DNA of 64,000 nucleotides, taken from NCBI GenBank assembly GCA_958296025.1, contig OY282430.1:3212477-3276476 (forward strand). The letters are read 5' to 3'. Source of the stretch: an uncultured Pseudomonadales bacterium (GTDB lineage: Bacteria; Pseudomonadota; Gammaproteobacteria; Pseudomonadales; Azotimanducaceae). The position numbers and the translations under genes were made by a program. This document shows positions 9,821 through 64,000 of the stretch, one piece after another (within the stretch, counting starts at the first letter, position 1; the number at the start of each line of letters is the position of its first letter). A model generated the notes under the pieces. It was given only the letters and a program-made list of their open reading frames with translations, made no database searches and was not told where the DNA came from.

Positions 9821-10213
9821 GGCGGTGCGTTGGGAGGCGGCACTGGGCGATGCACCGGGAACTTCCTGTTGGCGGTGGCGGCCCTACGCAGCAGCATGAC
9901 CATCGTGGCGGAGCGAATGGGCTGCACTCTGTTCATTGCCCCTCTTAAAGCACCTATTTTCCGCCAATTGGCGGGCAGCCAGGCCACTATAAGGACTCTG
10001 GGTGCATATCTCCAATCCTGCCGACGGGCGGCAAAGACTTCATCGAAATCGTTCAGTGGCCAGACGTCGGGATGGGAGGGCATCTCCAAAGCCGGGGGCC
10101 ATTTCGCGCAGCGGCGGTTCTGGATACCTGCCGTGCTCCATCATCGCCAGACGTGCCGACCGGCTCAGCTCTCAACGAGATGGGAAGGCGTCATGCGTAT
10201 TTCAATGTGCTTG

Positions 10214-11269
10214 TCAGGCATCTAAGCGGGCGAGGAATTCCCGCCCCGTCTCGCAGCGCACGATCAGCTCGCCAATTTCCTCAAGGTGGTCGGAGTCCGC
10301 GACGTCCTCCAGCAACTCCGCAGCGCGGTCAGCGGTGTCCTCACCGAACCGCACAGTCGCCAATCGGCGCAGCAGCGCCCGCTGGCGCTCAAGCCCCTGC
10401 TCAAGGCCCTGCTCGCGGCCCTGCTCAAGGCCCTGCTCGCGGCCCTGCTGAATCCACGGCTTGGGCCACTCCGCCACACGCTCCTCAAGGCTCATCTCAT
10501 CAAGCGTCATCCTCACATCCTCCAAGTCCAAGCCCGGAGGCGGCGAATCCGCCGCCTCCGGCTGCAACCGCCGCGCCAGCCGCCACAGCCAGTCCGCAAA
10601 CGCACGGCGCAACTCCGCATCCCCCGGCTCCCGCAGCCAGCCCTGCAGCGACGCCGCCACCAGGCGCAGGTCCTCCGGAGAACGGCTGCGCTCCATCCGC
10701 GACACCGCGCCGACCAGGTTGCGCAGGGGCAAATCATCTTCCCGCAGACGCTGCAGGTCAACCACCAGATAGCGCTGCGAGGGCTGGTGGGGTGCCAGGG
10801 ACAGCCCCGTCGGCGCCACTAGGTCCCGCACGTCCGTGGCCGCCGACCAGCGCGGCCCACCGTTGTACAGCACCACCGGCAGCACCGGCGGGCGCAGGCC
10901 GCCCGGGCCAAGGCCGCTACGGGAAAGCTCCCGGTACAGCAGCACGGTGTATTCCAGAATGCGCAGCGCCATGTCCGGCTCGCTGCGGGACTGAAACTCC
11001 AAGAGGATCAGGACATGCAGCCAGTCCCCGTCCAAGGGCAGCCGCCACACCGAGTCGCCGAGGCGCTTGCGCAGGTCGTCGCCGACGTACTCGGCGGGGG
11101 CCTTGCGCAAGGCGGGGAAGTCCGCCCGCTGAATCCAGTCGCCCTTGGCGAAGCCGCGCAGCAGGTCCTCCACCATGCGCGGGAAGGCGAAGATGCGCTT
11201 GTAGATTGGGTCGTTCACGGGGCCAAAATAGCCCCATGTCAAGGGCGCGTCTGTACGCCAAGGATGCAT
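10214..11269 (-). CDS. Rpn-family recombination-promoting nuclease / putative transposase (YhgA-like PD-(D/E)XK) with DUF4351-type C-terminal tail
   Basis: DPIYKRIFAFPRMVEDLL, HVLILLEFQSRSEPDMALRILEY, LPVVLYNGGPRW. C-terminal ...LLRRLATVRFGEDT...IVRCETGREFLARLDA. Start taken at ATG 11269 (MHPWRTD...). Confidence 0.85.
   Translation of the reverse strand: MHPWRTDAPLTWGYFGPVNDPIYKRIFAFPRMVEDLLRGFAKGDWIQRADFPALRKAPAEYVGDDLRKRLGDSVWRLPLDGDWLHVLILLEFQSRSEPDMALRILEYTVLLYRELSRSGLGPGGLRPPVLPVVLYNGGPRWSAATDVRDLVAPTGLSLAPHQPSQRYLVVDLQRLREDDLPLRNLVGAVSRMERSRSPEDLRLVAASLQGWLREPGDAELRRAFADWLWRLARRLQPEAADSPPPGLDLEDVRMTLDEMSLEERVAEWPKPWIQQGREQGLEQGREQGLEQGLERQRALLRRLATVRFGEDTADRAAELLEDVADSDHLEEIGELIVRCETGREFLARLDA
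10388..10450. repeat. In-frame tandem repeat (24-nt unit ctgctcaaggccctgctcgcggcc, about 2.5 copies) inside rpn
   Basis: Encodes QGREQGLEQGREQGLEQGLE on the minus strand. Confidence 0.85.
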
Positions 11270-11554
11270 TTTGCGTAGGAGATCGGCGCTTTGACGCTGC
11301 AGGAGGCGCATTGAAGGCAGGTGCATGATTGCTGCGAAGGCGCTCCTGCAGGGAGGGGGCATCGACCGTGCCGAGGCAGATGGCGTCACAGCGAATGCCT
11401 TGGGTGACCGGGACGGGAAACCAGCCCACCGCCTTGCGGGTGTGGCTGGGGAGGTGCTCGCTTTTTATGTTGTGCAGGTGGACATGTTCTCCAAGTGTAG
11501 CGCCCCGCCAGCAAAAACAGTCGAAGTCCCCATGCTCCATCGCTGGTCAGCGAT

Positions 11555-12382
11555 TCAGCTTCCTTGGGGTCCACCGAGCGGGCCAGTGGAGGCGCGATGG
11601 CCCAAGGCGTCGGAAATATCTGTTGCGGCTGCGGCCAAGTGTTGCCGGGCCTGCTCAAGGTCAACCTTGTGGGAGCTGTCCAGATGCTCCAGGAAGGGCA
11701 CCACCAAGGCGGCGCTGATGGTGCCGGAGTAATCGAATACCGGGTAGCCGATGTCCTTCACCCCCTGCACCTGCTCGCTTTCGACCACCTCAAAGCCTTG
11801 CTTCAACACAAGGCTGAGGGCCTGTTTCAACTCGGCGCGGTGTACGGGGGGCTTCGGCCTAGCCTCGTTAAGCATCCGCCGCCGCTCCTCCAGGCTGGAG
11901 AAGGCCAGCAGAATGCGACCGGAGCAACTGTTAGCCAAGGACGCATCCGCCCCCAAGCGGACGTTGAGGCCGCGGTCCGCCGGGCTGCTTTGCTGCACCA
12001 CGACGATGCCCCGGCCTTGGTAGTGGATGACCAGATGGCAGGACTGCTCAATGGTTTGGACCAGCTTGGACATGGCCGGCGCGGCGGCGCTGGACAGGCG
12101 CTGAATGCGGGGTTGGCGATGGGTCAGGGCGAACAGCTTCAGCGTCATGCCATAGGTTTCGGACTCGCGGTCCAAGTAGATGTAGTCCCGGTCGTTCAGC
12201 ACCACCAGCATGCGGAAGATCTCGCCCTTGGAGCGCCCCAGTTTGTCAGCGATTTGCCCCAAGGAAAGGCGGCCGGGTTCGGAGGCCATCAGTTCCAAAA
12301 TGTCGAGACCTTTGGCCAAGGCTGGGGCAGTATAGGTTTTTCGTCTTGTTGCCGGGGCTGCCATTGCGGGACCCTCACTCAA
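11555..12382 (-). CDS. IclR-family transcriptional regulator
   Basis: N-terminal wHTH ALAKGLDILELMASEPGRLSLGQIADKLGRSKGEIFRMLVVL plus a C-terminal effector-binding region. Confidence 0.85.
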   Translation of the reverse strand: MSEGPAMAAPATRRKTYTAPALAKGLDILELMASEPGRLSLGQIADKLGRSKGEIFRMLVVLNDRDYIYLDRESETYGMTLKLFALTHRQPRIQRLSSAAAPAMSKLVQTIEQSCHLVIHYQGRGIVVVQQSSPADRGLNVRLGADASLANSCSGRILLAFSSLEERRRMLNEARPKPPVHRAELKQALSLVLKQGFEVVESEQVQGVKDIGYPVFDYSGTISAALVVPFLEHLDSSHKVDLEQARQHLAAAATDISDALGHRASTGPLGGPQGS

Positions 12383-12402
12383 TCCGGGAATCAGCTTAGC
12401 CC

Positions 12403-13560
12403 ATGACCGCCGCCAAGTACATCAACCGGGAGCTCTTGGCCACCTTCGCAGTGACCTTGCTGGTGCTGTTCGCGGTGGCGGTGGGCGGGCGCTTCATCGG
12501 CTACCTGCAGGATGCGGCGGTTGGCAAGTACGCCGCCAACAGCCTGCTCACCGTCATGGGCCTGCGGCTGCCGGGCTTTTTGCAGTTGATCGTCCCCTTC
12601 GCCTCCTACATCGCCCTGCTGCTGACCTTAGGGCGAATGCACGCGGAACAGGAAATGGCCGTGCTGCAAAGCTGCGGCGTCGGCCTCGGGCGGCTGCTGG
12701 GCTGGACCTTGGCGCCCTTGGCGCTGGTGGCGGGCGTGGTGGCCTGGCTTTCCCTGACGCTAACGCCGGCAAACAACGCCGCCTTAGACCGTTTCGTGCT
12801 GGAGCAGCGCACCAAGGCTGGGTTCGACCGTGTGCAGCCGGGCTTGTTTCAAGTCTCCAACGGAGGACGGCGGGTCACCTACGCGGAGAGCCTCGGCGAA
12901 GATGGCCGCACCCTGAACGAAGTGTTCATATCCGAGTATGGCGATGGGGACGCAGTGGCCAGCATCTGGGCCAAGCACGGTGAACAGTATGTGGATGAGG
13001 AAACCGGCAGCCGCTTTCTGGTGCTGGAGGAAGGGATGCGGCTGGCGCTAGGGGGCGGCGCAGCAAAAGACGAAGGCGCTAGCAAACCGCGGCAATTGAT
13101 TCGCTTCGCCTCCTTGGGCCGGAAGATCGACGTAGGGGCGGCAGTGTTGCGGATGAAAGAGGATGCCCAGCCCACCGCCAGCCTTTGGCGCCGCGACGAC
13201 GCGGCGGCGGCGGCGGAACTGCATTGGCGCATCGCCCTGCCCCTGTTTTGCCTCATCAGCGCTCTGATCGCCCTTGGAGTGTCGCCCGTCAAACCCCGCC
13301 AGGGACGGTTTGGCCGCATCGTGCCAGGGGTGCTCATCATGCTCGGTTACTACCTTGCCCTGCTGGCCAATCAAAATGTCCTCGTAGATGGTTATTTGCC
13401 GCCGGCGTTCGGCCTCTGGCCGGCCCATGCGCTGTTTGCGGCGGTGGCCGCGGCTTTGGTTTGGAAGGCGCATCCGATTAGGCCCTTGCGCCCAGACCGT
13501 AGCGCATGGCGTGTCCCGACGACGCACGCGGGATCGACCACTTGCGGAACCAAGGGCTAG
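12403..13560 (+). CDS. lptF: LPS export ABC transporter permease LptF
   Basis: YINRELLATF start, multi-TM profile with a central periplasmic domain, directly followed by lptG. Confidence 0.9.
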   Translation: MTAAKYINRELLATFAVTLLVLFAVAVGGRFIGYLQDAAVGKYAANSLLTVMGLRLPGFLQLIVPFASYIALLLTLGRMHAEQEMAVLQSCGVGLGRLLGWTLAPLALVAGVVAWLSLTLTPANNAALDRFVLEQRTKAGFDRVQPGLFQVSNGGRRVTYAESLGEDGRTLNEVFISEYGDGDAVASIWAKHGEQYVDEETGSRFLVLEEGMRLALGGGAAKDEGASKPRQLIRFASLGRKIDVGAAVLRMKEDAQPTASLWRRDDAAAAAELHWRIALPLFCLISALIALGVSPVKPRQGRFGRIVPGVLIMLGYYLALLANQNVLVDGYLPPAFGLWPAHALFAAVAAALVWKAHPIRPLRPDRSAWRVPTTHAGSTTCGTKG

Positions 13561-53426: not shown

Positions 53427-53595
53427 GGCGCATCCTGATCTTGCTGAGGGGGAGTAATGGTAGCAGCCAATCCCGGCGCCCTGCCCAACGGCATGACCAT
53501 CGAAAAGATGAAGAGCGGATAGCAAACGCCGCGCAACTTCAACAGGGTCCGCATCCTACCGAACTACGGCGTGGCGGGTGGAGCGCCGGGATGGG

Positions 53596-53655
53596 GCGTC
53601 GCTGGCGGACTACGAACGGATGTTGGCGCAGGAGAAGGGAGCAAGAGAGATGACG
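53596..53655. repeat. Short fourth copy of the rpn-derived repeat (LADYERMLAQEKGAREMTTL segment) at the tandem-duplication junction
   Basis: ctggcggactacgaacggatgttggcgcaggagaagggagcaagagagatgacgacgtt also occurs at 54622 and 56954. Confidence 0.8.
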
Positions 53656-53677
53656 ACGTTGATTCGGCCAAAACCCC

Positions 53678-54127
53678 TCAAACCGCTCGCGCCTCCACCA
53701 CCACCGCAGCGACCGCCGCACGGGTTAGGTCGGCGGCGTTCGGGGTCCTGTCCTTGTTCAGCTTGACCTCATAGAAGGCGGCGTCCTGCGGGTATTGGGT
53801 GAGGTACGCCTTCAGCAGCTCCTCGATGCGCGGCGGGTCGTCCAGGATGACGTTGACCCGGTAGCGCCCTTCGGCACCGCGGAGTGCGAGCACCACTTCC
53901 GTGCCGTCCGCGAGGTCGCGCCACCAGCGGGTTTTGCGGGAACTGAAGCAGCGCACCGTTGCGCCGTCCTGAACATAGCGCACCAGCTTGGTGTAGGGGC
54001 GGTTCGTGTATTTGCTGACTAAGGTCATCAGTAGCAGGCTGCCGCTCATCAGGAAGTGCAGCGGGGAGCGCAGCAGCCGAACCATCATCGGGTTGATGAA
54101 TTTAAGCAGAGGTTGGGGAATTTTCAT
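53678..54127 (-). CDS. DUF385 / deazaflavin-dependent nitroreductase-family protein, copy 2
   Basis: Paralog of 52977..53426 (MKIPQPLLKFINPMM...). ATG 54127. Confidence 0.65.
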   Translation of the reverse strand: MKIPQPLLKFINPMMVRLLRSPLHFLMSGSLLLMTLVSKYTNRPYTKLVRYVQDGATVRCFSSRKTRWWRDLADGTEVVLALRGAEGRYRVNVILDDPPRIEELLKAYLTQYPQDAAFYEVKLNKDRTPNAADLTRAAVAAVVVEARAV

Positions 54128-54289
54128 GGCACATCCTGATCTCGCTGAGGGGAAGTGATGATAGCAGCCAACCCCAGCACCCTGCCCAACGGCATGACCA
54201 TCAAAAAGATGAAGAGCGGGTAGCAAGCGTCGCGCAACTCCAACAGGGTCCGCATCCTACGGGACTACGGCGTCACGGACGACCGCGGC

Positions 54290-54997
54290 ATGGGCATCCG
54301 CCGCAAGGTCATTCCGCTGATGCGGGAACACAACGGCTGCGAGCCGGAGTTCGAGGCGGCGGAAGACTACTTCCGATGGCGGGCCTATGTTGTGATTGAC
54401 TATCCGAAGCTTGCCGGCGACCATGCGCTCATGCGCCGGCTGCTGCCGGACAACCGCCAGGCGGCGCTGATCCGCTTGGAGAGCGCCTCCGGCGACGACG
54501 TGCCTAGGCTGCTGGCGGCGGCGTTCCAGCGGTGGAGCGGGCCGGAGTCAGGGGGGCTGCGTCGGGGCTTCCACGCCCGGGCCGAGCATTTGCTGCGGCG
54601 GCGGGGATTGGCGCTGCCGCCGCTGGCGGACTACGAACGGATGTTGGCGCAGGAGAAAGGAGCAAGAGAGATGACGACGTTAATGGAGGCGAGGCTGCAG
54701 GAATGGCACGACAACGCCATTGCGCAGGGTGTGCGGCAAGGTGTGCAACAGGGGATGCAGCAAGGGGTGCGGCAAGGCTTACAGCAGGGGGTGCGGCAAG
54801 GCGTCCACCAAGGCCAAACGGACCTGCTGCGCCGCCAAGCGGAGCGGCGCTTTGACGCGGAAACCGCCCGGCGGCTGTCGGCCCTGCTGGACGGCGCCGA
54901 CGCGGACCGCTTGATTGAGGTGGGCGATTGGATTGTCGAGTGCAGCAGCGGCGACGAACTGCTGGAGCGGCTCCGCCAAGCCGGCGGGTTGGCCTAG
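54290..54997 (+). pseudogene. 5'-truncated rpn paralog lacking the PD-(D/E)XK core; retains the middle region and DUF4351-type tail
   Basis: Aligns by eye to the intact Rpn from VIPLMREHNG (= LPVVLYNGG) to the tail. Rpn-like sequence (RVRILRDYG = LRILEYT) continues upstream of the ATG to a stop at 54221. The catalytic EFQ strand and everything before it are missing. Confidence 0.55.
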
Positions 54998-55125
54998 CGA
55001 CTCCCCGTTAATAGGTCCGCGACCACCTCGCTGCCGCATGCGTCAAAACGACCGCGACGTCCTTAAGACGTGCTCGCCGATGTAGCTGAGGATCAGGTTG
55101 GTCGATATGGGGGCGAATTCCCCGC
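54615..55125. repeat. Direct repeat A (~510 bp): rpn 3' part, spacer, and the 3' end of a convergent unknown gene
   Basis: Collinear with 56947-57455, with only scattered mismatches. Confidence 0.9.
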
Positions 55126-55197
55126 GAAGGCGAACCTTGTCAATGGGGAAGGGAGTGGCGGTTGTGGCCTGCATACGGAGTTGTACACTGCGTTCTC

Positions 55198-55947
55198 ATG
55201 AAACAACCTTCACGATTCAGCGCCGCTGAGCGTCCGCGAGACTCATCCATCGTCTTAAGGCCGCTTTGGGAGCGCACTGAGGTCATTCCCATGCGGCATC
55301 CACCTGTTGAACCCCAAGACGGGCGGTGGGACTTGAGCGACACCGAAAACCAGTTGCTGCCGGATGGATACTGGGGCATTTGGGTGCCGCCCACCACTGT
55401 GGAACGGCATGTCACTGGGCTGGAGATGCTAAACCTTCCCGGCGAGCCTTGCGGCGATTGGCGAGGGCATGGGGTATGGCTGTCGCGCAACTTTGCCGAC
55501 GACATGGGGCGCCGTCTGTGCGTCACCTTGTCCAAGGCGGGGCCCTTGTCCGTCCATGCGTTGTTGGGTGCGCAGGGCGTCGCGGACATCCGCCCGCGCT
55601 TGGCGCTGGCCGGGCATCCCGCCGCCCGCCGCAGCGTTCCCGTATGGGGGGCGTCACATGCCCGGGCGGCTTTGGAGTGGGCTTGGGATGCGTTAGTGGA
55701 GACCGCGGAGGGAAGTGCGCCCGACGGCAGTGAGTTGGCGGAATGGCTGTCCGATGCGCAGGCCGATGAGTTGACGCACATGGCGCATAGGTTAGTCCGG
55801 GCGCATCCCGACCCGGACATCGCCGCCGTTTGGCTGCAATGGGTGGAGCAGTCGTTGCATCCTCCAGACCGTCGCGGGGCGGCGGCGGTCGGCGTCCAAC
55901 CGCGCAGGATCAATTTGCCACCTCGAAAAACTGAGGTTGTCACATGA
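55198..55947 (+). CDS. Hypothetical protein, upstream partner of the AbiEii-like gene
   Basis: ORF with ATG 55198 (TTG 55162 also possible). Its stop overlaps the next start (ATGA at 55944-55947). No HTH or other motif recognised. Confidence 0.55.
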   Translation: MKQPSRFSAAERPRDSSIVLRPLWERTEVIPMRHPPVEPQDGRWDLSDTENQLLPDGYWGIWVPPTTVERHVTGLEMLNLPGEPCGDWRGHGVWLSRNFADDMGRRLCVTLSKAGPLSVHALLGAQGVADIRPRLALAGHPAARRSVPVWGASHARAALEWAWDALVETAEGSAPDGSELAEWLSDAQADELTHMAHRLVRAHPDPDIAAVWLQWVEQSLHPPDRRGAAAVGVQPRRINLPPRKTEVVT

Positions 55948-56921
55948 CGGCGGCGATGGACTTGCCGTCACTGCTGCCGCCCGTACCAGAGTCGCCTGAC
56001 GGCCGGGACGCATGGTGGGAAGGCGTCCTGCATCGGGCCATTGCGCTGGCGCAGCACCAATTGGAAGGGCAAGGCTCGCCCGCCATCCTGCTCGGCGGCA
56101 CCGCTGCCCGCCTATGCTACGGATTGTCGAGGCCATCCCAGGACATCGATTTGGACCTGCTTCACCAAGATGGGGATGTGGCGTCAGCAATCAGCACAGG
56201 CTTCACGCAAGCCCAAAAGGAGCTGGCTGCGTCGGTGCATTGGCCAAAGCGCCGCCATGGACGGGGCTTTGAGGTGCGGTTGTCGCATCCTCGCTTTGGC
56301 GGGCGCACCTGCTCAGTGGACACTAGAGTGTTGCGCGGCGATGCTGCCGAGACGGCGGAACATCAGCTGTCCATATTGGCGGCGGGCCTGCGAGTGTATC
56401 GGCCCGATGAACTGGTGCGTCAAAAAATGGCGCTGGCAATCGATACCAAAGAGCGTCGGCGGGGGCGGGACCGATATGACCTGGCGTGGTGGCTGACGAA
56501 TCGAATGGAGTGCGCGGCACCCAACGACCGCATTGCACTGAGCCATGCACTGTCCGAAAGCTCCATCTTGCAAGAGGCTTGGGACCGTTCCCATCGTAAG
56601 GACGCCATCCTGAGCCGCGTTCCTCCCCAAGCGGTGCAGGCGGCGCTGGATGCCGCCTTGGCGTCCGACCCAATCGTGCTGCTGAGCCGTCATCCGCAAG
56701 GCTCCGTCACCATCGACGCATCCATGCAAGAGGGGTGCCGTCTTCTCTGGCGGGACGAGCCGCATGCCACGAAGCGTTTGTTGCGGCAGTTCCCTTCCGC
56801 ACAAAGGTGCATTCGCCATCTGCAGGCGATTGGCTGGTGCGACGAGGGGGATGCGAATTCGTTGCTGCGTCAATCCCTAGGGCAGGCGGGCACACCCTTA
56901 GTTGCGCCGTCGCCTTCATAA
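55944..56921 (+). CDS. Nucleotidyltransferase of the AbiEii/AbiGii toxin family
   Basis: LLGGTAARLCYGLSRPSQDIDLDL (GGTA...S.DIDL NTase motif) and KMALAIDTKERRRGRDRYDLAWWL (K...R.RD.YDL). Confidence 0.7.
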   Translation: MTAAMDLPSLLPPVPESPDGRDAWWEGVLHRAIALAQHQLEGQGSPAILLGGTAARLCYGLSRPSQDIDLDLLHQDGDVASAISTGFTQAQKELAASVHWPKRRHGRGFEVRLSHPRFGGRTCSVDTRVLRGDAAETAEHQLSILAAGLRVYRPDELVRQKMALAIDTKERRRGRDRYDLAWWLTNRMECAAPNDRIALSHALSESSILQEAWDRSHRKDAILSRVPPQAVQAALDAALASDPIVLLSRHPQGSVTIDASMQEGCRLLWRDEPHATKRLLRQFPSAQRCIRHLQAIGWCDEGDANSLLRQSLGQAGTPLVAPSPS

Positions 56922-56946
56922 AGCCCGGCACCCAACTACTGGCCCG

Positions 56947-57455
56947 GCCGCCGCTAGCGGACTACGAACGGATGTTGGCGCAGGAGAAAGGAGCAAGAGA
57001 GATGACGACGTTGATGGAGGCGAGGCTGCAGGAATGGCACGACAACGCCATCGCGCAGGGGGTGCGGCAAGGTGTGCAGCAAGGCTTGCAGCAGGGAGTG
57101 CGGCAAGGCTTACAGCAGGGGGTGCGGCAAGGCGTCCACCAAGGCCAAGCGGACCTGCTGCGCCGCCAAGCGGAGCGGCGCTTTGACGCGGAAACCGCCA
57201 GGCGGCTGTCGGCCCTGCTGGAAGGCGCCGACGCGGACCGCTTGATTGAGGTGGGCGACTGGATTGTCGAGTGCGGCAGCGGCAACGAACTGCTGGAGCG
57301 GCTCCGCCAAGCCAGCGGGTTGGTCTAGGCACTGCCTCTCAATCAGGCCGCGACCACCCCACTGTCGCATCCGCGTCAAAACGACCGCGGCCTACCCAAG
57401 ACTTGCTCTCCGATGGAGCTGAGGATCAGGTTGGTGGAGATGCGGGCGGTCCGGT
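56947..57455. repeat. Direct repeat B (~510 bp), partner of 54615-55125
   Basis: See repeat A. Confidence 0.9.
56972..57328 (+). pseudogene. Free-standing rpn 3' fragment (DUF4351-type tail only, 118 codons from an internal ATG)
   Basis: MLAQEKGAREMTTLMEARLQEWHDNAIAQGVRQG...RLIEVGDWIVECGSGNELLERLRQASGLV. About 95% identical to the tail of 54290..54997. Confidence 0.5.
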
Positions 57456-57504
57456 AGAGGCGGATTTCGCGGAAAATGGCCAAGATCGGCCAAAAAAGAC
57501 CTTG

Positions 57505-57696
57505 ATGCCGGCTCGGGTCAACGAAATCGTCCGCGGCCGTCGCGGCACTACCGCTGGAACGGCGTTGCGCCTTGCCCGGTACTTCAACACCGACGCGCAA
57601 AGCTGGATGAACCTTCAGAGTCAGTATGAACTGGCACTTGCGGCCCGGGAGGCCGACGACTCGCTGGCGGCAATCCGGCCGCTGCAAGTAGCCTAA
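57505..57696 (+). pseudogene. higA: HigA-type (XRE HTH) antitoxin, N-terminally degraded
   Basis: ARVNEIVRGRRGTTAGTALRLARYFNTDAQSWMNLQSQYELALAA matches the C-terminal two-thirds of HigA. The expected PxHPGEIL...LGxSQ part is scrambled, and no higB is present. Confidence 0.5.
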
Positions 57697-57879
57697 GCGG
57701 CGGCGCTTTCGCTAAGCAAGCAACGCCCCGCGGGCTTTGATGGCCCTACTCCTCGCTTTCACACTACTACCGGCAGCCAGAAAGCGCCCAAAAGCGCCCT
57801 AAGGCGTGTCTAGGATCTTCCTTGCCGGCAGTTTGCTTTGCGCGGCTTGGCTATAATTGTGCTTCCGTCAACCTGGAGA

Positions 57880-58530
57880 ATGACCTTGAAAAAGCTACTG
57901 GCCAATTTGCTGCTTGCCACCGTGCTGCCGGCTTTAGGCCATGCTCAAACCGTGGACATTTGCGGCAGAACGCCGCAAGTGCGCGACGCCATCATGGGGG
58001 ACCTTGGCGCGGAAGACTGCGCCGCCGTGGATTCCGCACAGATGGCCGAATTGCGACTATTTATATTTAGTCGAAACAGGTTGACGGCCTTGCCGGCGGG
58101 CGTGTCCGAAGGCCTGACCAACTTGAACACACTGGAGTTGACGAACAACCGCCTTGTGGGATCGAGCCGGAATGACCCATTGTTTGCCATGCTTCCCAGC
58201 GAGGTTGACTCGGAATCGGAGTGGCAAACCGAAGAGCCGGATGGGCTAGAACCTCCGGCAACACGCCTTGCCAACACCGGGGCGAACGCCGCAAGCGTGA
58301 GCACTGAAGGTGTCGACGGCCAAGGCAACACCGCCGGGCCGGTCACCTTGACGCTGGCCGCCCCAGCCAAGCGGAAAACGACCCTTCCGCCCCTCCCGGA
58401 ATCCGCCCTCGCCCGACTTCCCGGGTCCCAAAAACACAGGATCGAACGCAACAGCTTCGCCAGCAAACGACTCTATAATCACCCCGGCGATCCCATACAT
58501 TCAATTGACTTGAATGCGAAACTCACCTAG
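57880..58530 (+). CDS. Secreted protein with two leucine-rich repeats and a low-complexity C-terminus
   Basis: GGAGA RBS, signal peptide MTLKKLLANLLLATVLPALGHA, LRR units NRLTALPAGVSEGLTNLNTLELTNNRL. Confidence 0.55.
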   Translation: MTLKKLLANLLLATVLPALGHAQTVDICGRTPQVRDAIMGDLGAEDCAAVDSAQMAELRLFIFSRNRLTALPAGVSEGLTNLNTLELTNNRLVGSSRNDPLFAMLPSEVDSESEWQTEEPDGLEPPATRLANTGANAASVSTEGVDGQGNTAGPVTLTLAAPAKRKTTLPPLPESALARLPGSQKHRIERNSFASKRLYNHPGDPIHSIDLNAKLT

Positions 58531-58577
58531 AGTCCACCAGTGCGCCATTTTCCAACCAGCTTGCAAGGAGGCCGCTA

Positions 58578-59933
58578 ATGTCTTCGACCCATACGACAGC
58601 GACGAAAACCCTAAAAAGGCATTTTCTTATACCCATGTGTTGCGTATTTCTTCTCGCTGCATGTGTTGAAAATCCCGAAATCAAATCTGCAAGGGCCAGC
58701 TTGGAGCTTGCAGAAATGAAGGGTGATCTTGACGGCATGTTTCTGTCACTACGGCAGCTAGTAGAACTTGGTGATGAAGCAGCAGCAAATAGCTTGCCTT
58801 TGGTGCGCACAGCCATTGCAGAGCGCGAACGCATGCTTCAATCCCTCGCCGACCACGACCACGAAGGAGCAATCCAGGCAGCAGAGGAGCTGTTGAATAT
58901 AGTTCCGAAGCATAAAGAGGGTCTAAAGGTTCTTCGGGAGTCTGGGCAGATATTTTTCTACCTTAGAGAAGCGAAGCACCTCGTGGTCTCGATCTTTGAT
59001 CAAAGCAATTCTCAAGCAGTTACTATAGAGCCCTTAATGGTTGATGAGTCGCTGCCTGAGGAACAACGTCATGCTTTTATTGTAACGACAATCCAGACGC
59101 TTCTCGAAGAATTGGGCTACTACCACGGCGAAGTCGACGGTGTGGCGGGCCCCGATACGGAAAATGCGCTTGAAGCCTTCCAAAAGGAGCAAAATGAGGA
59201 GGAGACTTTCGACCTTTCTGTGGAAACTGCAAACATGCTGAAGTCCGAACATAGGAAGAGGGAGATGGAAGATAAGGATATCGAAAAGCGGTTTTACGCC
59301 TTTTCTCGTTCACGCAAACTCGTTGACTTAGCAAAAAAACTTGATCCAAACTTCCCGAACGCTATCGAATTTGGAGAGATTATTGACCGTGGACATTCGA
59401 GCCTAGTGTATATAGAGGCTCAAAGGATTATAGCGAAAGGTGCCTTGATGATGGTGAAGGCTGAAATGGTCCATTCCTTAATATCATCGACTCTAGGCAT
59501 CGCTGCTTCTTCTCCTTACGGATCTGTCCAAGATACTTGGAGAAGAATTTCTCCACTTGTTGATGAAATAAGGCAGCCACTAAAGATGGACAAGGAAAAA
59601 TTGGACAATGGTCTGGCTCTTCTCTCCACTTACGAGTCTGGTAGATCCCTTGAATTTGTATCAAATCTCAAGGAATACGTCGTGACAGTCCATGTAGCGA
59701 CAATGGCCTTTTTGGAGCCAAGTGGAAGTCTGGTCGACTTTCGACAAGCAGCAAGCGACGCTACTAGCGAGTATTCACGCGTCAGTGCTAGACTCAATGG
59801 GTCCATGCCTAGTGAAACTCAGATACAGGAGGACTATGAAGGTCTAGCCGCGATCCTTAGTAACCACGCAGTAGTTTCTGACCCGAGAACTGACCAAATC
59901 ATCGCTCGCCATGAAGGGCTTTATACTCTGTGA
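58578..59933 (+). CDS. Lipoprotein with a peptidoglycan-binding (PG_binding_1-like) domain
   Basis: Lipobox VFLLAAC; IQTLLEELGYYHGEVDGVAGPDTENALEAFQ. AT-rich codon usage unlike the core genes. Confidence 0.6.
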   Translation: MSSTHTTATKTLKRHFLIPMCCVFLLAACVENPEIKSARASLELAEMKGDLDGMFLSLRQLVELGDEAAANSLPLVRTAIAERERMLQSLADHDHEGAIQAAEELLNIVPKHKEGLKVLRESGQIFFYLREAKHLVVSIFDQSNSQAVTIEPLMVDESLPEEQRHAFIVTTIQTLLEELGYYHGEVDGVAGPDTENALEAFQKEQNEEETFDLSVETANMLKSEHRKREMEDKDIEKRFYAFSRSRKLVDLAKKLDPNFPNAIEFGEIIDRGHSSLVYIEAQRIIAKGALMMVKAEMVHSLISSTLGIAASSPYGSVQDTWRRISPLVDEIRQPLKMDKEKLDNGLALLSTYESGRSLEFVSNLKEYVVTVHVATMAFLEPSGSLVDFRQAASDATSEYSRVSARLNGSMPSETQIQEDYEGLAAILSNHAVVSDPRTDQIIARHEGLYTL

Positions 59934-59988
59934 GGAATTTTGCAAAATCCTTCTACTTCCGTGGAGTGCGAAGAGGGCGAGAGGTCGT

Positions 59989-60306
59989 ATGAAGGCTAAG
60001 GCATGGAATAACGGAAGATGGTATCCAACCGGAGCAGGGTATGGTATCAAGATATCTGCTGCGGATCGTGATAGGTATTTTCGCCGATGTTGGCCTAACG
60101 TGGACATTGAGCTGCCAAACGGCAACCAAGTCACAGTTAATACCAGTAAGAGGTCCTTCTGGGACGGAACATGCAGGGAGCTAATTCACAAGGATATTGG
60201 TCGATGGTTGATCGATAGCGGTAGAGCCCGATGGCTCCCTGGAAGTTCGCCGGAGTTTCAACTGGTTCCTATGCAAATGAGATGCTTTGTTTTAAAAATG
60301 GGCTAA
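59989..60306 (+). CDS. Small hypothetical protein (105 aa)
   Basis: MKAKAWNNGRWYPTGAGYGIKISAADRDRYF...SFWDGTCRELIHKDIGRWL. Pattern recalled from conserved hypothetical proteins. No function known to me. Confidence 0.45.
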   Translation: MKAKAWNNGRWYPTGAGYGIKISAADRDRYFRRCWPNVDIELPNGNQVTVNTSKRSFWDGTCRELIHKDIGRWLIDSGRARWLPGSSPEFQLVPMQMRCFVLKMG

Positions 60307-60343
60307 AAGCTAGTGTTCTGTTCCATAAATAACTAATATAACT

Positions 60344-60547
60344 ATGAGCGTGTTTAATCCAGAGAATACGCTTATGTCTCGCGATCGATCCACTGTTCCG
60401 ATTGTCCTCGACAATGACGAAAAACACGAATTGCTCGGTATCGTACGCTCCCGCTCACTGCCTCACGCAGTCTTGCGGAAGCGCTTCTGGCAACCAACCA
60501 CATTCTCGCTGGGCAAATTGCCGGCATCGAATTCGAGCAACATGTGA
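60344..60547 (+). pseudogene. Possible IS630-type transposase N-terminal (HTH) fragment
   Basis: PIVLDNDEKHELLGIVRSRSLPHA resembles the start of IS630-family transposases. Similarity is lost afterwards. Confidence 0.3.
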
Positions 60548-60798
60548 GGAACCTAACCAATGCGAAATCGAAAGATTCACTGGGATGGCTGGTTTACCAT
60601 AAGTTGCCCGATATCATTCGGGTACGCTGTTCGGGTCAGAATCAAAGTGAGGAAATTATCAAAAAGTGCAAGATGGCGCACGACGTCCGAAATCAAGCGA
60701 TTCATTTGGATCCTGTGCCAGAAGCGGAGGCCGTCGGGCAGCTACTCGAAGCCATGAAGCTGGTTGGACGGATGAGAATACCTATATCCCAACGGTAA
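60460..60798 (+). pseudogene. HEPN/DUF4145-like remnant (Rx4H motif), 5' end lost
   Basis: In the frame of ORF 60544..60798: ...AEALLATNHILAGQIAGIEFEQHVRNL...CKMAHDVRNQAIHLDP...AVGQLLEAMKLV. The RNQAIH motif fits the HEPN Rx4-6H signature. Only a GTG start at 60544. Confidence 0.3.
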
Positions 60799-60964
60799 AA
60801 GGTTGCCAAAAACCCAACTTCCCCAACGATGAAACCGAGGAAATAGCGGTGCCTTGGGCAGGTACTCTTAGGAATATAAGCGTAGATGAACTCGGCGCTG
60901 AACAGGGGATTAGAGAGGCGATGCTGGTAGAGCGATTTAGCCTGTATTGAGCATTTGCCGCTGG

Positions 60965-62086
60965 TTAGCTGTCCAAGCCCTTGTAAACATCCCGGCGAAG
61001 GCCGAACCGCTCCAAAACAACCCTATGTTCGTGCTTGTCCAGCCAATAGATTATGCGGTAGTCGCCAAGGCGATAGCGCCATCTGCGCCGCTGTCCCTGG
61101 AGCCGCTTAATCGGTTTCCGGGGTGTTGTCGGGTCGCGGCATATGCTCAAAGTCGCCTGACTTATCCTCGTGAACTCACCCATATTCCCATACACCTCAC
61201 TTTGGAAGCGACTGGTGTATGCAAGCTGCCAAGGAAGGCTGTCCGGGCCGATGTCCTGTATTGGCATGCTCTCCGGCGCTTGTTCCGCAACTTCAACCTC
61301 AGCGCTCTCCGAGGGCAACCCCGCCACAGTTTCGCGTAGCGACCGCAGGATTACGGTGCCAAGCTGGTGTTCCGATGGCAAATCGCAGATCCCGTCTTCG
61401 GACAGGCCAAGCAGTTCCGTGGCCACGCACTTTCCGAAGGCAGTGAGCGCATAGTCGCCAGCGGCCATCGCATCGAAGCAGTGCAGCACGTCCGTTTTCG
61501 TCGCCGCGACCTTCTCCCAATCGATCAACCGCCGATAGGCGTCGATAGCAGTCAAGTCGATGATGCGGGCAATTCCGAATCGCTTGATGTAGTCGCACAG
61601 AACATCCGTAAGCAAGGCGTCCTTCCGCCACAGCTCCGCAACCGGCGGTGCCATCGGACAGCTATACAGTTGAATTGGCTCCGTTGGCCGCAGCAGACCG
61701 TACAGACCGGAGATGAACAGGGTGTGGTGTTCGGATTCCGCCAGCCTTTGCTTGCCTTCCGCACCCAACGCCTGGAAGAACCGGCCCTCGTAGCGGTCAA
61801 GCGTCGGCAGATAGGTGGCGGTGTGCCGGCCGCCAAGGTCCGGACCACTGGTGAGTTCCTGGTTGAATGCAAGCTCCGAGACGGGGGCACCCTGCCAACA
61901 AAAATCAGAGGCGCTTTTCACGAGCTGGAAAATTCTTGCTCGCCGCTTGAGAAGCCGGTCTCCTAGGGAGTTCGGCAAAACGGAAGTGATCGCCTGCCCT
62001 GCATCGTACTCGGCGCTGCCGCCTGGCGCCTTGGTGAGTGAGCAGTTGGTCAGGAACAGCACCATGCTCGATGGCTGGTATGGCAT
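60965..62086 (-). CDS. Fusion protein: YaaA/DUF328-DUF6884-like N-terminal module + acidic linker + RelE/ParE-fold C-terminal domain
   Basis: GGAGG RBS 7 nt before ATG 62086. LFLTNCSLTK..., RYEGRFFQAL, LFISGLYGLLRPTEPIQLY (YaaA-type signature). C-terminal WQLAYTSRF...IKRLQGQRRRWRYRLGDYRIIYWLDKHEHRVVLERFGLRRDVY (RelE/ParE signature). Confidence 0.7.
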   Translation of the reverse strand: MPYQPSSMVLFLTNCSLTKAPGGSAEYDAGQAITSVLPNSLGDRLLKRRARIFQLVKSASDFCWQGAPVSELAFNQELTSGPDLGGRHTATYLPTLDRYEGRFFQALGAEGKQRLAESEHHTLFISGLYGLLRPTEPIQLYSCPMAPPVAELWRKDALLTDVLCDYIKRFGIARIIDLTAIDAYRRLIDWEKVAATKTDVLHCFDAMAAGDYALTAFGKCVATELLGLSEDGICDLPSEHQLGTVILRSLRETVAGLPSESAEVEVAEQAPESMPIQDIGPDSLPWQLAYTSRFQSEVYGNMGEFTRISQATLSICRDPTTPRKPIKRLQGQRRRWRYRLGDYRIIYWLDKHEHRVVLERFGLRRDVYKGLDS

Positions 62087-62143
62087 GAGGACGCCTCCAA
62101 CAGGAATTGAGAGCCTTGCATTTTACCTCGCGTCCAACGAGGA

Positions 62144-62887
62144 CTATACCCATGCCTCCACCAGCGCCTCCATCCTGTCCAGAAAGGCGACGTCGTAGTC
62201 CTCTTCAACGTGGTTGTTGTTCCACAGCCCGGAGGCGCGAACCCGCGGCCGGTCGCTGCAAGCGCCCAGCCAACGACCGGAGGGCGCATCGGCACCGACG
62301 CTTCGCGCATGGCTGAGCAAGGCGATGGCGTTGCGCTCGATGACCCCCCGGTCGCTGTGCGGGCTTGGATTGTCGGGGATGTTCAACCACAGAAACGGCA
62401 TCCGCCCGATGTGGGCGCTGACGCGGCGCTCCAAGTCCGCTTCCGCGTCTTTCACCGCTACGCGAGTCATGCCTAGTTTGCGGGCCGCGGCACCGGGGTC
62501 GCCGCCAATGCCCCAAGACCGCGGCGGTGGGCAATCGCCGCGCTCGGCCAGCGCCCTGCCCACCAACAGCCGGAAGATGGAGCCGCGGTGGTGGCCGCCC
62601 CCGCTCTTGGCGCTGCCGCGATGCTGGGAAAGCCGTGCCCACAGCGTTGTCCTTGAACGGTCTGTCAGCGCATGGGTGCCAACCCGCACCAAGCGGTCAC
62701 CGCGGCCCGACAAACTGCGCTGCTCGCCCTCTTCAAAGAAAAAATAGACGCCGCGTTGCGGCCAATCCATGCGGCCATCGCAGACGCCGAGGGTGCGGCG
62801 CCCGCCAGCCCGATCTTCAATGCGGGCCAGAAGATCGTAGAAGCGTATGGTGTCGGCAACGCGGCTCGGTGAGGGCTTTGTGGTCAA
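62144..62887 (-). CDS. GIY-YIG-like nuclease-family protein
   Basis: RGVYFFFEEGE ... LVRVGTHA ... LWARLSQHRG ... SIFRLLVG ... GVIERNAIALLS follows the GIY / YIG / R / E-N order. TTG start overlaps the upstream stop (TTGA). Confidence 0.6.
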   Translation of the reverse strand: MTTKPSPSRVADTIRFYDLLARIEDRAGGRRTLGVCDGRMDWPQRGVYFFFEEGEQRSLSGRGDRLVRVGTHALTDRSRTTLWARLSQHRGSAKSGGGHHRGSIFRLLVGRALAERGDCPPPRSWGIGGDPGAAARKLGMTRVAVKDAEADLERRVSAHIGRMPFLWLNIPDNPSPHSDRGVIERNAIALLSHARSVGADAPSGRWLGACSDRPRVRASGLWNNNHVEEDYDVAFLDRMEALVEAWV

Positions 62888-63687
62888 CGCTTAATCCGGT
62901 CGTTTAGCCAAGCCAACTGTTCGCCGATCTTCAGGCCTTCCATTGGCACCTCAACCCGAACGCCGCGCTTGCGCATTTCCGGGACCAAGAACTCGCGGTA
63001 GCGCTGGCCGGCAAAAACCACGACGGTTTGCACACCACCCAAATGGCACGCGAGCGCCTGCATAACGTCACTCGCCCAAGCCCGCCGCTCGGCCACCCGC
63101 ATCGTGTTCAGCGTCTTCTCGTAGGGAGCGATCTCCTTGTCGGGATGCACCAAACCATGCTTTGCGGAAAGGATGAACCAAGGCCAGCCTTGGGCTTCAA
63201 CCAATTTGCGCACCTTGGCAAACCAAACCGATATGTAAAGATCCCTAGCCAGCGCCTGATGAGATTGCTTCGTCCAAACGCAGGAAACAAGGCAGAGATC
63301 TGCGGCCGGCAGCTTGGCGTTCCTTGCGGACGGTGCCTTCGGGCGCGGGGTCGCTACGGTTTTCGGTGGCGGTCGGTCGGGCTGTTGCTTCTCTGCGCAC
63401 ATCTTGATCAAGGTTTTAGACGAACCCTTCCGCTTGTAGTGGAACCTGGTTGTAGTGCTTTCAGGGGGTCCCGTTCGGTCCAAGTACTCAAGCCCTACAT
63501 GCTCAGCTTCCCGTTGGAACTTCCGACCTTCAAGGGCGCTGCATACGGCTCGAGTCCTGTTGACAAGACCCATGCTGCGCACGACATCCCCGGTGCAAAT
63601 GGAAAGCGTAGCCTCATTGGCATCTAGAAAGGGCCGAACATAGCGTTCCATCACATGCTGTCGGATTCTGTCTGCTTGCGACGCCAT
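62884..63687 (-). CDS. DUF6884-domain protein with a ~90-aa N-terminal domain of unknown function
   Basis: AAGGGAG RBS before ATG 63687. C-terminal LCLVSCVWTKQ...ARDLYISVWF...WFILSAKHGLVHPDKEIAPYEKTL...FAGQRY...LKIGEQLAWL fits the DUF6884 pattern. Confidence 0.65.
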   Translation of the reverse strand: MASQADRIRQHVMERYVRPFLDANEATLSICTGDVVRSMGLVNRTRAVCSALEGRKFQREAEHVGLEYLDRTGPPESTTTRFHYKRKGSSKTLIKMCAEKQQPDRPPPKTVATPRPKAPSARNAKLPAADLCLVSCVWTKQSHQALARDLYISVWFAKVRKLVEAQGWPWFILSAKHGLVHPDKEIAPYEKTLNTMRVAERRAWASDVMQALACHLGGVQTVVVFAGQRYREFLVPEMRKRGVRVEVPMEGLKIGEQLAWLNDRIKR

Positions 63688-63774
63688 TTCGTGCTCCCTT
63701 GCGGCGGGCTTAGGTCTGCCGGCACTTATATCCAATTTGGCGATGGTTGTCTAAACGGCGTCAAGCCTCGGACT

Positions 63775-63900
63775 GCGCCGGCCGCCCGGTTGGCCCGCAA
63801 CCAGCCTCGCCATCGCATCCGTCTCAAAACGACCGCGACATCCCCAAAACGTGCTCGCCGATGTAGCTTAGGATCAGGTTGGTGGAGATGGGGGCGATGA
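63775..63900. repeat. Third copy (3' part only) of the rpn-derived repeat
   Basis: ...ccgcaaccagcctcgccatcgcatccgtctcaaaacgaccgcgacatccccaaaacgtgctcgccgatgtagcttaggatcaggttggtggagatggggg matches 55017-55125 and 57347-57450. Confidence 0.8.
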
Positions 63901-64000
63901 TCCCTCAATCTGAGGAGCGCCGGCCCTCCGCCGGCATGATGCGCCGCATGAATGCATCGAAAAGGGGTGCTGTGAAGGCGGTGTCGCCGTGGCTTGGGCT

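Follow-up and report, generated by a model that had tools for sequence, protein, structure and literature searches.

The window analysed here is a stretch of 64,000 nucleotides (nt) from an uncultured Pseudomonadales bacterium (assembly GCA_958296025.1, contig OY282430.1), and a gene on its reverse strand, at positions 60965-62086, encodes a protein of 373 amino acids (aa) in which an N-terminal YaaA/DUF6884-type domain is fused to a C-terminal domain with the fold of the RelE toxins. Nucleotide positions are given in window numbering throughout, and domain positions are residues of the 373-aa window protein. The gene is complete, running as an uninterrupted open reading frame (ORF) from an ATG start to a stop codon at 60965-60967, and a Shine-Dalgarno sequence, GGAGG (62094-62098, reverse strand), was read from the sequence 7 nt 5' of the ATG at 62086. 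An AlphaFold2 (AF2) model of the fusion protein, built from 46 homologs, has a mean predicted local distance difference test (pLDDT) score of 86.8 and a predicted template modelling (pTM) score of 0.70, and divides the chain into three parts: an ordered N-terminal 'cantaloupe' domain of aa 1-251 (61334-62086, reverse strand; pLDDT about 88-98), recognised by PF03883, AF2, Foldseek and the motifs C15xxxK19 and L125SGLYG130; a disordered acidic linker of aa 252-283 (61238-61333, reverse strand; pLDDT below 50), within which the acidic sequence SESAEVEVAEQAPESMPIQD falls; and a C-terminal domain of aa 284-373 (60968-61237, reverse strand), of which aa 284-370 form a beta-alpha-alpha-beta-beta-beta arrangement. 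Among the 46 family members the linker is net negative in 42 and the RelE domain is net basic in every one, with a mean charge of +8.7, while mean pairwise identity is 0.27 in the linker, 0.57 in the N-terminal domain and 0.44 in the RelE domain. A promoter scan found no promoter-like site at the locus, terminator-like sites occurred at the chance rate, no tRNA or Rfam match was found near the locus, and an exact-sequence look-up showed that the window protein is not on record.

RelE toxins are textbook two-gene modules. The toxins of the RelBE, YoeB-YefM and RelG systems (PF05016, PF06769) are separate proteins, about 90 aa long, each encoded next to an antitoxin gene, whereas the domain studied here is the C-terminus of a 373-aa protein that resembles them in fold, in profile matches with E-values down to 1e-9 and in equivalents of the catalytic residues. 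PF05016 was matched by all 22 aligned family members at E<=0.01 (best E 3.8e-11), a PHROG 'RelE-like toxin' profile matched aa 320-369 of the window protein (1.6e-8), and a phmmer search of the PDB retrieved Thermus thermophilus RelE (2KHE, 1.9e-5). A family profile of the RelE domain, made from 22 sequences and searched against the PDB, matched Mycobacterium tuberculosis RelG/Rv2866 (1.4e-9), T. thermophilus RelE (1.7e-8), Pyrococcus horikoshii aRelE (1.8e-7) and M. tuberculosis RelE1 (3e-7), with weaker matches to RelK, YoeB, Methanocaldococcus jannaschii RelE3 and Escherichia coli RelE. The fold is laid out in the AF2 model as a strand at 287-290, helices at 292-299 and 302-317, a short strand at 326-328 and strands at 335-340, 343-350 and 355-363. 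Foldseek matches of the C-terminal domain in the PDB are a series of RelE, YoeB and HigB2 toxins with target-normalised template modelling (TM) scores of 0.64-0.80, including 3G5O, 7V5Y, 1WMI and 4FXE, and the Cami1-ribosome structure 8PHJ was among the matches with low probability.

The domain was aligned by hhalign with a 95-aa E. coli RelE sequence, which equals the 4FXE chain in length. The alignment places R337 opposite K52, R339 opposite K54, R344 opposite R61, R364 opposite R81 and Y368 opposite Y87, and independent HMMER alignments (phmmer against the PDB, and the family profile) give the same WRYR...YR..Y...R..VY register. The five E. coli positions are the catalytic residues known from RelE-ribosome structures and mutagenesis, and R337, R339, R344, R364 and Y368 are accordingly marked as putative catalytic residues of the fusion protein. 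Conservation was counted over 131 distinct RelE domains fused to a YaaA-like N-terminal domain, in which the R337 equivalent is R or K in 95%, the R339 equivalent R or K in 99%, the R344 equivalent R in 100%, the R364 equivalent R or K in 98%, and the Y368 equivalent Y in 89% and F in a further 3%. An earlier note, made from the sequence alone, had raised the question of whether the catalytic positions survive in this domain, and all five are kept. Since these positions are 89-100% conserved, the RelE domain is probably an active RNase, and the same conservation speaks against a gyrase poison of the ParE kind as well as against a docking module without activity.

The fusion is not peculiar to the window. 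When the fusion protein was searched against 5.8 billion proteins, more than 100 clusters aligned with 97-100% of its length, at identities of 44-95%. The architecture that the earlier note had described from a single protein recurs in more than 130 distinct homologs, the most distant of them about 44% identical. Many of these homologs are already annotated with both PF03883 and PF05016; the names they carry are either absent or refer to one domain only ('peroxide stress protein YaaA' or 'RelE'), which masks the architecture. A scan of one genome per species located 32 loci, all in metagenome-assembled genomes (MAGs) and mostly in uncultured Alpha- and Gammaproteobacteria, many of them complete long-read chromosomes, with three copies in one genome. 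The fusion gene is a real and widely conserved bacterial gene. Three of 29 copies (those at L026, L028 and L030) are split by frameshifts, which lie at about aa 266, about aa 220 and aa 87-132, and because these positions are unrelated among the three copies, the frameshifts reflect decay or sequencing error with no ancestral two-gene state behind them. A few family members lie on contigs binned to archaea, namely a Heimdallarchaeota MAG (L025) and a Methanobacteriota MAG (L029), or to Chloroflexi (L031/L034), and these members of an otherwise proteobacterial family could reflect horizontal transfer or binning error.

The N-terminal domain belongs with the YaaA proteins in sequence profile and in fold. 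PF03883 (YaaA) matches aa 91-195 with 35.8 bits against a gathering score of 29.6, covering profile positions 72-178 of 236, and the top PDB match of the AF2 model in Foldseek is E. coli YaaA (DUF328; 5CAJ, E=3.1e-8, target-normalised TM score 0.51), with which the motif LSGLYGLLRPxExIQxY, read from the sequence, is held in common. The fusion protein differs from E. coli YaaA in that it has a DUF6884-type CxxxK motif and is joined to an effector domain. With the NCBIfam YaaA equivalog models, whose cut-offs are 204-392, it reaches no more than 12-18 bits, so that it is not a YaaA ortholog, and the name 'peroxide stress protein YaaA' on one homolog (P0078) is an over-annotation.

The motifs of DUF6884 (PF21818), a family that includes Bacillus subtilis YfjM, have been defined as CxxxK and LSAxxG (PMC11701544). 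In the fusion family C15-SLT-K19 is invariant, and L125-S-G-L-Y-G130 has G in place of the A of LSAxxG, with S126-G130 invariant; likeness to DUF6884 thus lies in CxxxK and LS[AG]xxG. The Pfam scan gave no PF21818 match to the window protein at E<=0.1, and PF21818 was matched by 21 of 88 relatives of the N-terminal domain that lack RelE (best E 1.3e-9). The earlier note had given this domain about 215 aa and a YaaA/DUF6884 signature: its YaaA-like character was borne out, its DUF6884 character holds at the level of motifs, and its size had to be revised to about 250 aa. Residues K19, R49, N75, G101, Y129-G130, E136 and Q139 are kept across clades with differing C-termini, a set that resembles an active site or ligand site and would not be expected of a mere steric plug. 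A cleft that is positively charged and binds DNA is common to YaaA and DUF6884 proteins, lesions of the abasic and RNA-base kinds are bound by YfjM, and in an AlphaFold3 (AF3) model of YfjM, built on a DNA-RNA hybrid, a base is flipped into the CxxxK/LSAxxG site (PMC11701544). DpdC, a further PF03883 member, turns preQ0 into 7-amido-7-deazaguanine (ADG) within DNA (PMC12839542).

Relatives of the N-terminal domain carry a variety of C-terminal modules. A search with this domain alone gave 487 clusters (50% identity) at E<=1e-3 and 301 at E<=1e-10, and C-terminal classes were counted among the 150 best representatives. A helical module with an R-N-x-x-x-[H/Y] (R-x4-H/Y) motif was the commonest (31/150), followed by RelE (about 28), a module of about 150 aa of no named family (18), Schlafen/AlbA_2 (13-14) and HEAT repeats (7); Pfam matches to TIR, NERD and HEPN, and a domain of about 225 aa that defines the P0044 class, were each seen in single or few cases. 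One chain (P0148) combines a DUF6884 segment, a fusion-type N-terminal domain and HEAT repeats, and two proteins (P0048 and P0050) carry HicA (PF07927) as a third domain after RelE. The AF2 model of the helical module is a confident four-helix bundle, its Pfam matches to DUF4145 are weak (E 0.02-0.09) and, in Foldseek, HepS and YutE, both HEPN structures, are matched only at E>4, so that membership of HEPN could not be shown. Because the same N-terminal domain is fused to unrelated C-terminal modules, it is read as a shared sensor that would drive interchangeable effectors, and a conserved domain with interchangeable nuclease- or NADase-type partners is the usual signature of sensor-effector families in conflict systems. 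Neither the fusion nor the effector-swapping family was found described in the literature open to search, which also yielded no paper on PDC-M57, a gene pair introduced below, or on DpdC together with YaaA.

Two side observations concern this exchange of modules. In P0044-P0047, P0049, P0122 and P0167 the N-terminal domain is 73-78% identical and RelE is exchanged for an unrelated domain of about 225 aa without a Pfam match, which looks like a recent effector swap within one clade. At locus L008 the gene of a HicA-bearing variant (10001-11269) is followed, 22 nt 3', by an ORF of 73 aa (11291-11512) that is HicB-like by eye and had no PDB or Pfam match; the pair suggests read-through capture of a hicAB module.

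To survey the neighbours of the fusion gene, every ORF lying up to 5 kb from it was clustered for 29 non-redundant loci. Apart from shadow ORFs, the sole recurrent neighbour is a pair of genes, PDC-M57A and PDC-M57B. No conserved same-strand ORF of at least 40 aa abuts the fusion gene in about 27 loci, where only Arg-, Pro- and Gly-rich chance ORFs were seen, and the gene calls at L001, L003 and L004 contain no antitoxin-like gene beside it; the one exception is the 73-aa ORF, HicB-like by eye, that follows the HicA-bearing variant at L008. The fusion gene of the window is flanked by the PDC-M57B gene at 57 nt on its 5' side and by a convergent low-GC segment on its 3' side. The adjacent and co-transcribed small antitoxin gene that characterises type II toxin-antitoxin (TA) systems was thus not found, in agreement with the absence of an antitoxin gene claimed in the earlier note. 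That note's RelE fold at the C-terminus and its acidic linker were likewise recovered, the former by the AF2 model, Foldseek and profile matches, and the latter inside the disordered stretch. Further off, at 57271-57696 on the forward strand, lies a HigA-like antidote fragment (...VNEIVRGRRGTTAGTALRLARYFNTDAQSWMNLQ...) that apparently lacks its N-terminal half and is followed by a gene for a leucine-rich-repeat protein (57838-58530, forward strand; LRR_8, 2.8e-5). HigA-like ORFs are also present 1-3 kb from the fusion gene at L005, L006 and L017.

PDC-M57A and PDC-M57B lie upstream of the fusion gene on the same strand. PDC-M57B (62144-62887, reverse strand) encodes a 247-aa protein of GIY-YIG_3 type (PADLOC PDLC04714, 5.6e-78), whose homolog at L003 (phmmer 4e-88) carries PF26468 GIY_YIG_3, and PDC-M57A (62884-63735, reverse strand), the first gene of the cluster, overlaps B by 4 nt and encodes a DUF6884 domain at aa 148-278 (PF21818, 1.3e-49; PADLOC, 5.3e-38). 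No PADLOC model, those for PDC-M57A/B included, matched the fusion protein, and the PADLOC DpdC models match PDC-M57A weakly and not the fusion protein, which sets the latter apart from DpdC. Homology between the N-terminal domain and the DUF6884 domain of PDC-M57A was sought directly, and the hhalign match was not significant (E=0.31); the link between them consists of shared motifs and of double Pfam matches in relatives only. PDC-M57 adjoins the fusion gene in seven of about 29 loci, the window and six others, in the arrangements A-B-fusion, fusion-A-B and convergent, and the fusion proteins of the other linked loci are 43-67% identical to that of the window. Given three arrangements and this degree of divergence, the linkage is no single inherited accident. 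Defence-related genes near other copies comprise type I restriction-modification (RM), PDC-S11, AbiEi and pPIWI-associated nuclease genes, and the neighbours of the fusion copies included no CRISPR or Cas genes.

In the window a complete AbiEi/AbiEii pair, of the type IV TA or abortive-infection kind, occupies 55162-55947 and 55944-56921 on the forward strand with a 4-nt overlap (PADLOC, 7.5e-13 and 1e-17; Pfam AbiEii, 1.8e-13), about 4 kb from the fusion gene. AbiEii homologs also lie near a fusion-family gene at L006 and near a truncated relative, consisting of the N-terminal domain only, at L033. Neither PDC-M57 nor the AbiE pair, nor the precedent of Cami1 discussed below, figured in the earlier note.

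From this architecture and its conservation we infer an RNase activity, its autoinhibition, a ligand of a particular nature and a role in defence, and propose, with a probability of roughly one half, that the fusion protein is an autoinhibited, ligand-gated RelE that acts as a single-chain sensor-effector. The C-terminal domain would be a catalytically competent, ribosome-dependent mRNA endonuclease of the RelE type, silenced in cis by the N-terminal domain, the acidic disordered linker or both, with no separate antitoxin. The N-terminal domain would be a conserved ligand-binding and possibly base-flipping module, and its cue would most plausibly be something unusual in a nucleic acid, for instance DNA that is modified or damaged, or a DNA-RNA hybrid. 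Binding of the cue would free or activate RelE, which would then cut mRNA in the A site and stop translation. The likely role would be growth arrest of an abortive-infection or conflict type, exerted alone or, in some genomes, beside PDC-M57. RelB-type antitoxins have acidic, disordered tails that bind the toxin, and an acidic linker next to a basic RelE domain may be taken as circumstantial support for inhibition in cis. A wider proposal is held more tentatively, as a possibility rather than an expectation: the YaaA/DUF6884 domain would define a previously undescribed family of single-chain immune sensors, in which a base-flipping reader of modified or damaged DNA (phage DNA, for example) or of DNA-RNA hybrids is coupled to RelE, HicA, HEPN-like, Schlafen/AlbA_2, TIR or NERD effectors.

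Several results weigh against these proposals. PF05016 falls just below its gathering cut-off of 23 bits, both on aa 307-367 of the whole protein (19.2 bits) and on the isolated C-terminal domain (22.6 bits). Autoinhibition by the N-terminal domain or the linker is a conjecture, since the AF2 output gives no interdomain confidence, and the N-terminal domain itself has a net negative charge, on average -5. Among the alternative modules, several of the commonest are not proven effectors, namely the HEAT repeats, the 'HEPN-like' bundle and the module of about 150 aa. PDC systems are 145 untested candidates from 'guilt by embedding' (bioRxiv 10.1101/2024.01.29.577857), and PDC-M57 is one of these. 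A reverse survey of 80 metagenomic PDC-M57B loci, of which 28 had sufficient downstream sequence to be judged, found a YaaA-like gene in one of the 28 and RelE in none. PDC-M57 loci are therefore generally without a fusion gene, which rules the fusion gene out as a third core component of PDC-M57 and leaves it as an occasional partner. Many copies sit amid housekeeping genes (aconitase, acyl-CoA dehydrogenases, CoaE), and the family was not found on IMG/VR viral contigs or PLSDB plasmids, as a result of which a defence role is not established.

The alternative that survives best keeps the same wiring and changes the purpose. The YaaA-like domain would sense oxidative stress, damage to the cell's own DNA or a cue related to iron, as YaaA-family proteins have been implicated in doing, and RelE would pause translation during repair, so that the protein would serve stress-gated growth arrest and not phage defence. 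E. coli YaaA takes part in the response to peroxide, and yaaA mutants of Caulobacter are sensitive to mitomycin C (MMC), ultraviolet light (UV) and H2O2 (PMC10055390), and lesion binding by the DUF6884 protein YfjM, the housekeeping neighbours and the absence from phages and plasmids all fit such a role. The fusion protein, however, is set apart from true YaaA by its equivalog scores, the TIR, NERD, HEPN and Schlafen/AlbA_2 effectors of its relatives are typical of conflict systems, and it recurs beside PDC-M57, RM and AbiE genes. Its patchy, multi-copy distribution, with three copies in one genome and frameshifts in three of 29 copies, also fits accessory genes, and a purely endogenous stress role is considered unlikely, although it deserves the most weight of the alternatives.

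A second alternative, put forward in part by the earlier note, reverses the roles of the two domains: RelE would be a co-opted targeting module that brings an N-terminal enzyme to the A site or to RNA, where the enzyme would act on a base of mRNA, tRNA or rRNA. The active-site-like set of residues kept in the N-terminal domain is consistent with an enzyme, as are the precedent of DpdC, which acts on a base within a polynucleotide, and the DNA-RNA hybrid on which the YfjM model was made. The five RelE catalytic equivalents, however, are under strong purifying selection that pure docking would not need, and the same N-terminal domain also carries modules without ribosome binding (TIR, NERD, HEAT, Schlafen/AlbA_2). 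Of the two functional readings offered in the earlier note, that of the N-terminal domain as a sensor or cis-regulator of an RNase is favoured by the conserved catalytic positions and the swapped effectors, whereas the co-opted binding module is disfavoured by the same conservation and is regarded as improbable.

It is more improbable still that the protein is a conventional type II toxin whose antitoxin went unrecognised, whether an unlinked antitoxin of RelB/ParD type, PDC-M57A/B or the HigA-like fragment at 57271-57696. Toxins of the RelE superfamily normally require an antitoxin, and candidates lie near some copies, PDC-M57 at seven loci and a HigA-like ORF 1-3 kb away at L005, L006 and L017, but at about 22 of 29 loci PDC-M57 and any conserved small neighbour are both absent, and the HigA-like ORF of the window, which looks truncated and drew no PADLOC match, is on the opposite strand at a distance of 3.3 kb. 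Fusion to a conserved domain of 250 aa is moreover kept in every member that bears RelE. An artefact of assembly or sequencing, named in the earlier note as a possible source of the architecture, can be set aside together with a recent chance joining of two genes, signs of which might be seen in the split copies at L026, L028 and L030, since the frame is uninterrupted in the window, the frameshifts of those copies lie at unrelated positions, and more than 130 distinct sequences from independent assemblies, complete long-read MAG chromosomes among them, have the same architecture.

For a ligand-gated RelE that needs no antitoxin, the closest functional precedent is Cami1, a CARF-RelE protein that is activated by cyclic tetra-adenylate (cA4) and has no antitoxin (PMC11229360). 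Both proteins consist of an N-terminal ligand-sensing domain and a C-terminal RelE-family nuclease, but the sensor of Cami1 is a CARF domain that binds cA4 from type III CRISPR systems, whereas that of the fusion has a YaaA/DUF6884 fold and no CRISPR context, and no sequence-level relation was found between them beyond the RelE superfamily. Cami1 is so far the only described antitoxin-free, sensor-fused RelE; such a design is accordingly already known, as are both of the superfamilies joined here. A likeness in concept only, with a toxin and an inhibitory or sensing domain in one polypeptide, is offered by CapRelSJ46, reportedly a fused toxin-antitoxin immune sensor (Zhang et al., Nature 2022) in which a phage capsid protein is the trigger that relieves autoinhibition and translation is arrested. 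CapRelSJ46 pairs a tRNA pyrophosphokinase of RelA/SpoT type with a pseudo-zinc-finger antitoxin domain, folds unrelated to those of the fusion, for which the presumed cue is a nucleic acid.

On the wider proposal of a family of immune sensors, Cami1 would be joined by the RelE version as a second known class of ligand-gated RelE that needs no antitoxin, and at loci with PDC-M57, a DNA-cutting candidate that combines DUF6884 and GIY-YIG, the RelE version would add a layer of translation arrest. A second, unrelated sensor fold on an apparently active RelE would make the ligand-gated RelE a general design. Proposals for the role of YaaA/DUF328/DUF6884 proteins range over peroxide stress, DNA-lesion binding and base chemistry of the DpdC kind, and the fusion would provide the first experimental handle on the ligand that the YaaA fold reads: a fold of this type tied to a lethal and easily scored output would allow a direct genetic screen for that ligand. 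The effector-swapping family, with its 487 clusters, points to an uncatalogued sensor of conflict systems.

Direct repeats punctuate this part of the window. Within 53500-64000, an 84-nt direct repeat, D2, occurs three times (55032-55115, 57365-57448 and 63813-63896), its 25-nt core having three occurrences against none expected by chance, and a 300-nt repeat, D1, occurs twice with 95% identity (54609-54908 and 56940-57239). The AbiE pair is bracketed by D1 and D2, and a 6.4-kb segment with the fusion gene and PDC-M57 is bracketed by the second and third copies of D2 (D2b and D2c). A Pseudomonadales MAG (L006) is syntenic and has D2 cores on both sides of its AbiEii gene. Taken together, the repeats look like cassette accretion at one hotspot. 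The AbiE pair is also flanked by two paralogous ORFs on the forward strand (54290-54997 and 56735-57328), which are 95% identical over their C-terminal 128 aa, contain a (Q-G-[VLM]-[RQ]) repeat tract and match the PADLOC entry 'C3a178 putative invertase' weakly, at about 2-5e-5.

Directly 3' of the fusion gene, a segment at about 58.5-61.0 kb has a low GC content of about 47-50%, against about 60-68% upstream in the stretch, and is probably a separate, horizontally acquired insert. It holds a gene for a 451-aa peptidoglycan-binding protein (58578-59933; PG_binding_1, 6.5e-10) and an ORF of 131 aa without a family match (59911-60306). Convergent with the fusion gene, at 60544-60798 on the forward strand, lies an 84-aa ORF whose sequence 'RNQAIH' agrees with the R-x4-H motif of HEPN RNases. 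This ORF resembles the R-N-x-x-x-[H/Y] module found on relatives of the N-terminal domain; it has no Pfam or PADLOC match and may be a remnant or a product of chance.

L103, the only one of the 80 loci of the reverse survey with a YaaA-like gene, has PDC-M57B at 3-722 on the forward strand, and the YaaA-like gene starts 4 nt later (726-1688, forward strand; E=7.4e-14) and lacks RelE. PDC-M57A was not detected on this contig, which starts at B, so that A may lie upstream, beyond the contig. Weak GIY-YIG matches (E about 0.02-0.03) were obtained beside further copies of the fusion gene, at L024 and L001. At L024, a GIY-YIG-like ORF (11151-11585, forward strand; GLYRFRL...YIGETDELRRRF; Pfam GIY-YIG, E=0.034) has a start that overlaps the stop codon of the fusion gene and is broken by a DDE-type transposase ORF, IS630-like by eye, at 11235-12428 on the reverse strand. 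This ORF would be a second kind of GIY-YIG neighbour, distinct from PDC-M57B.

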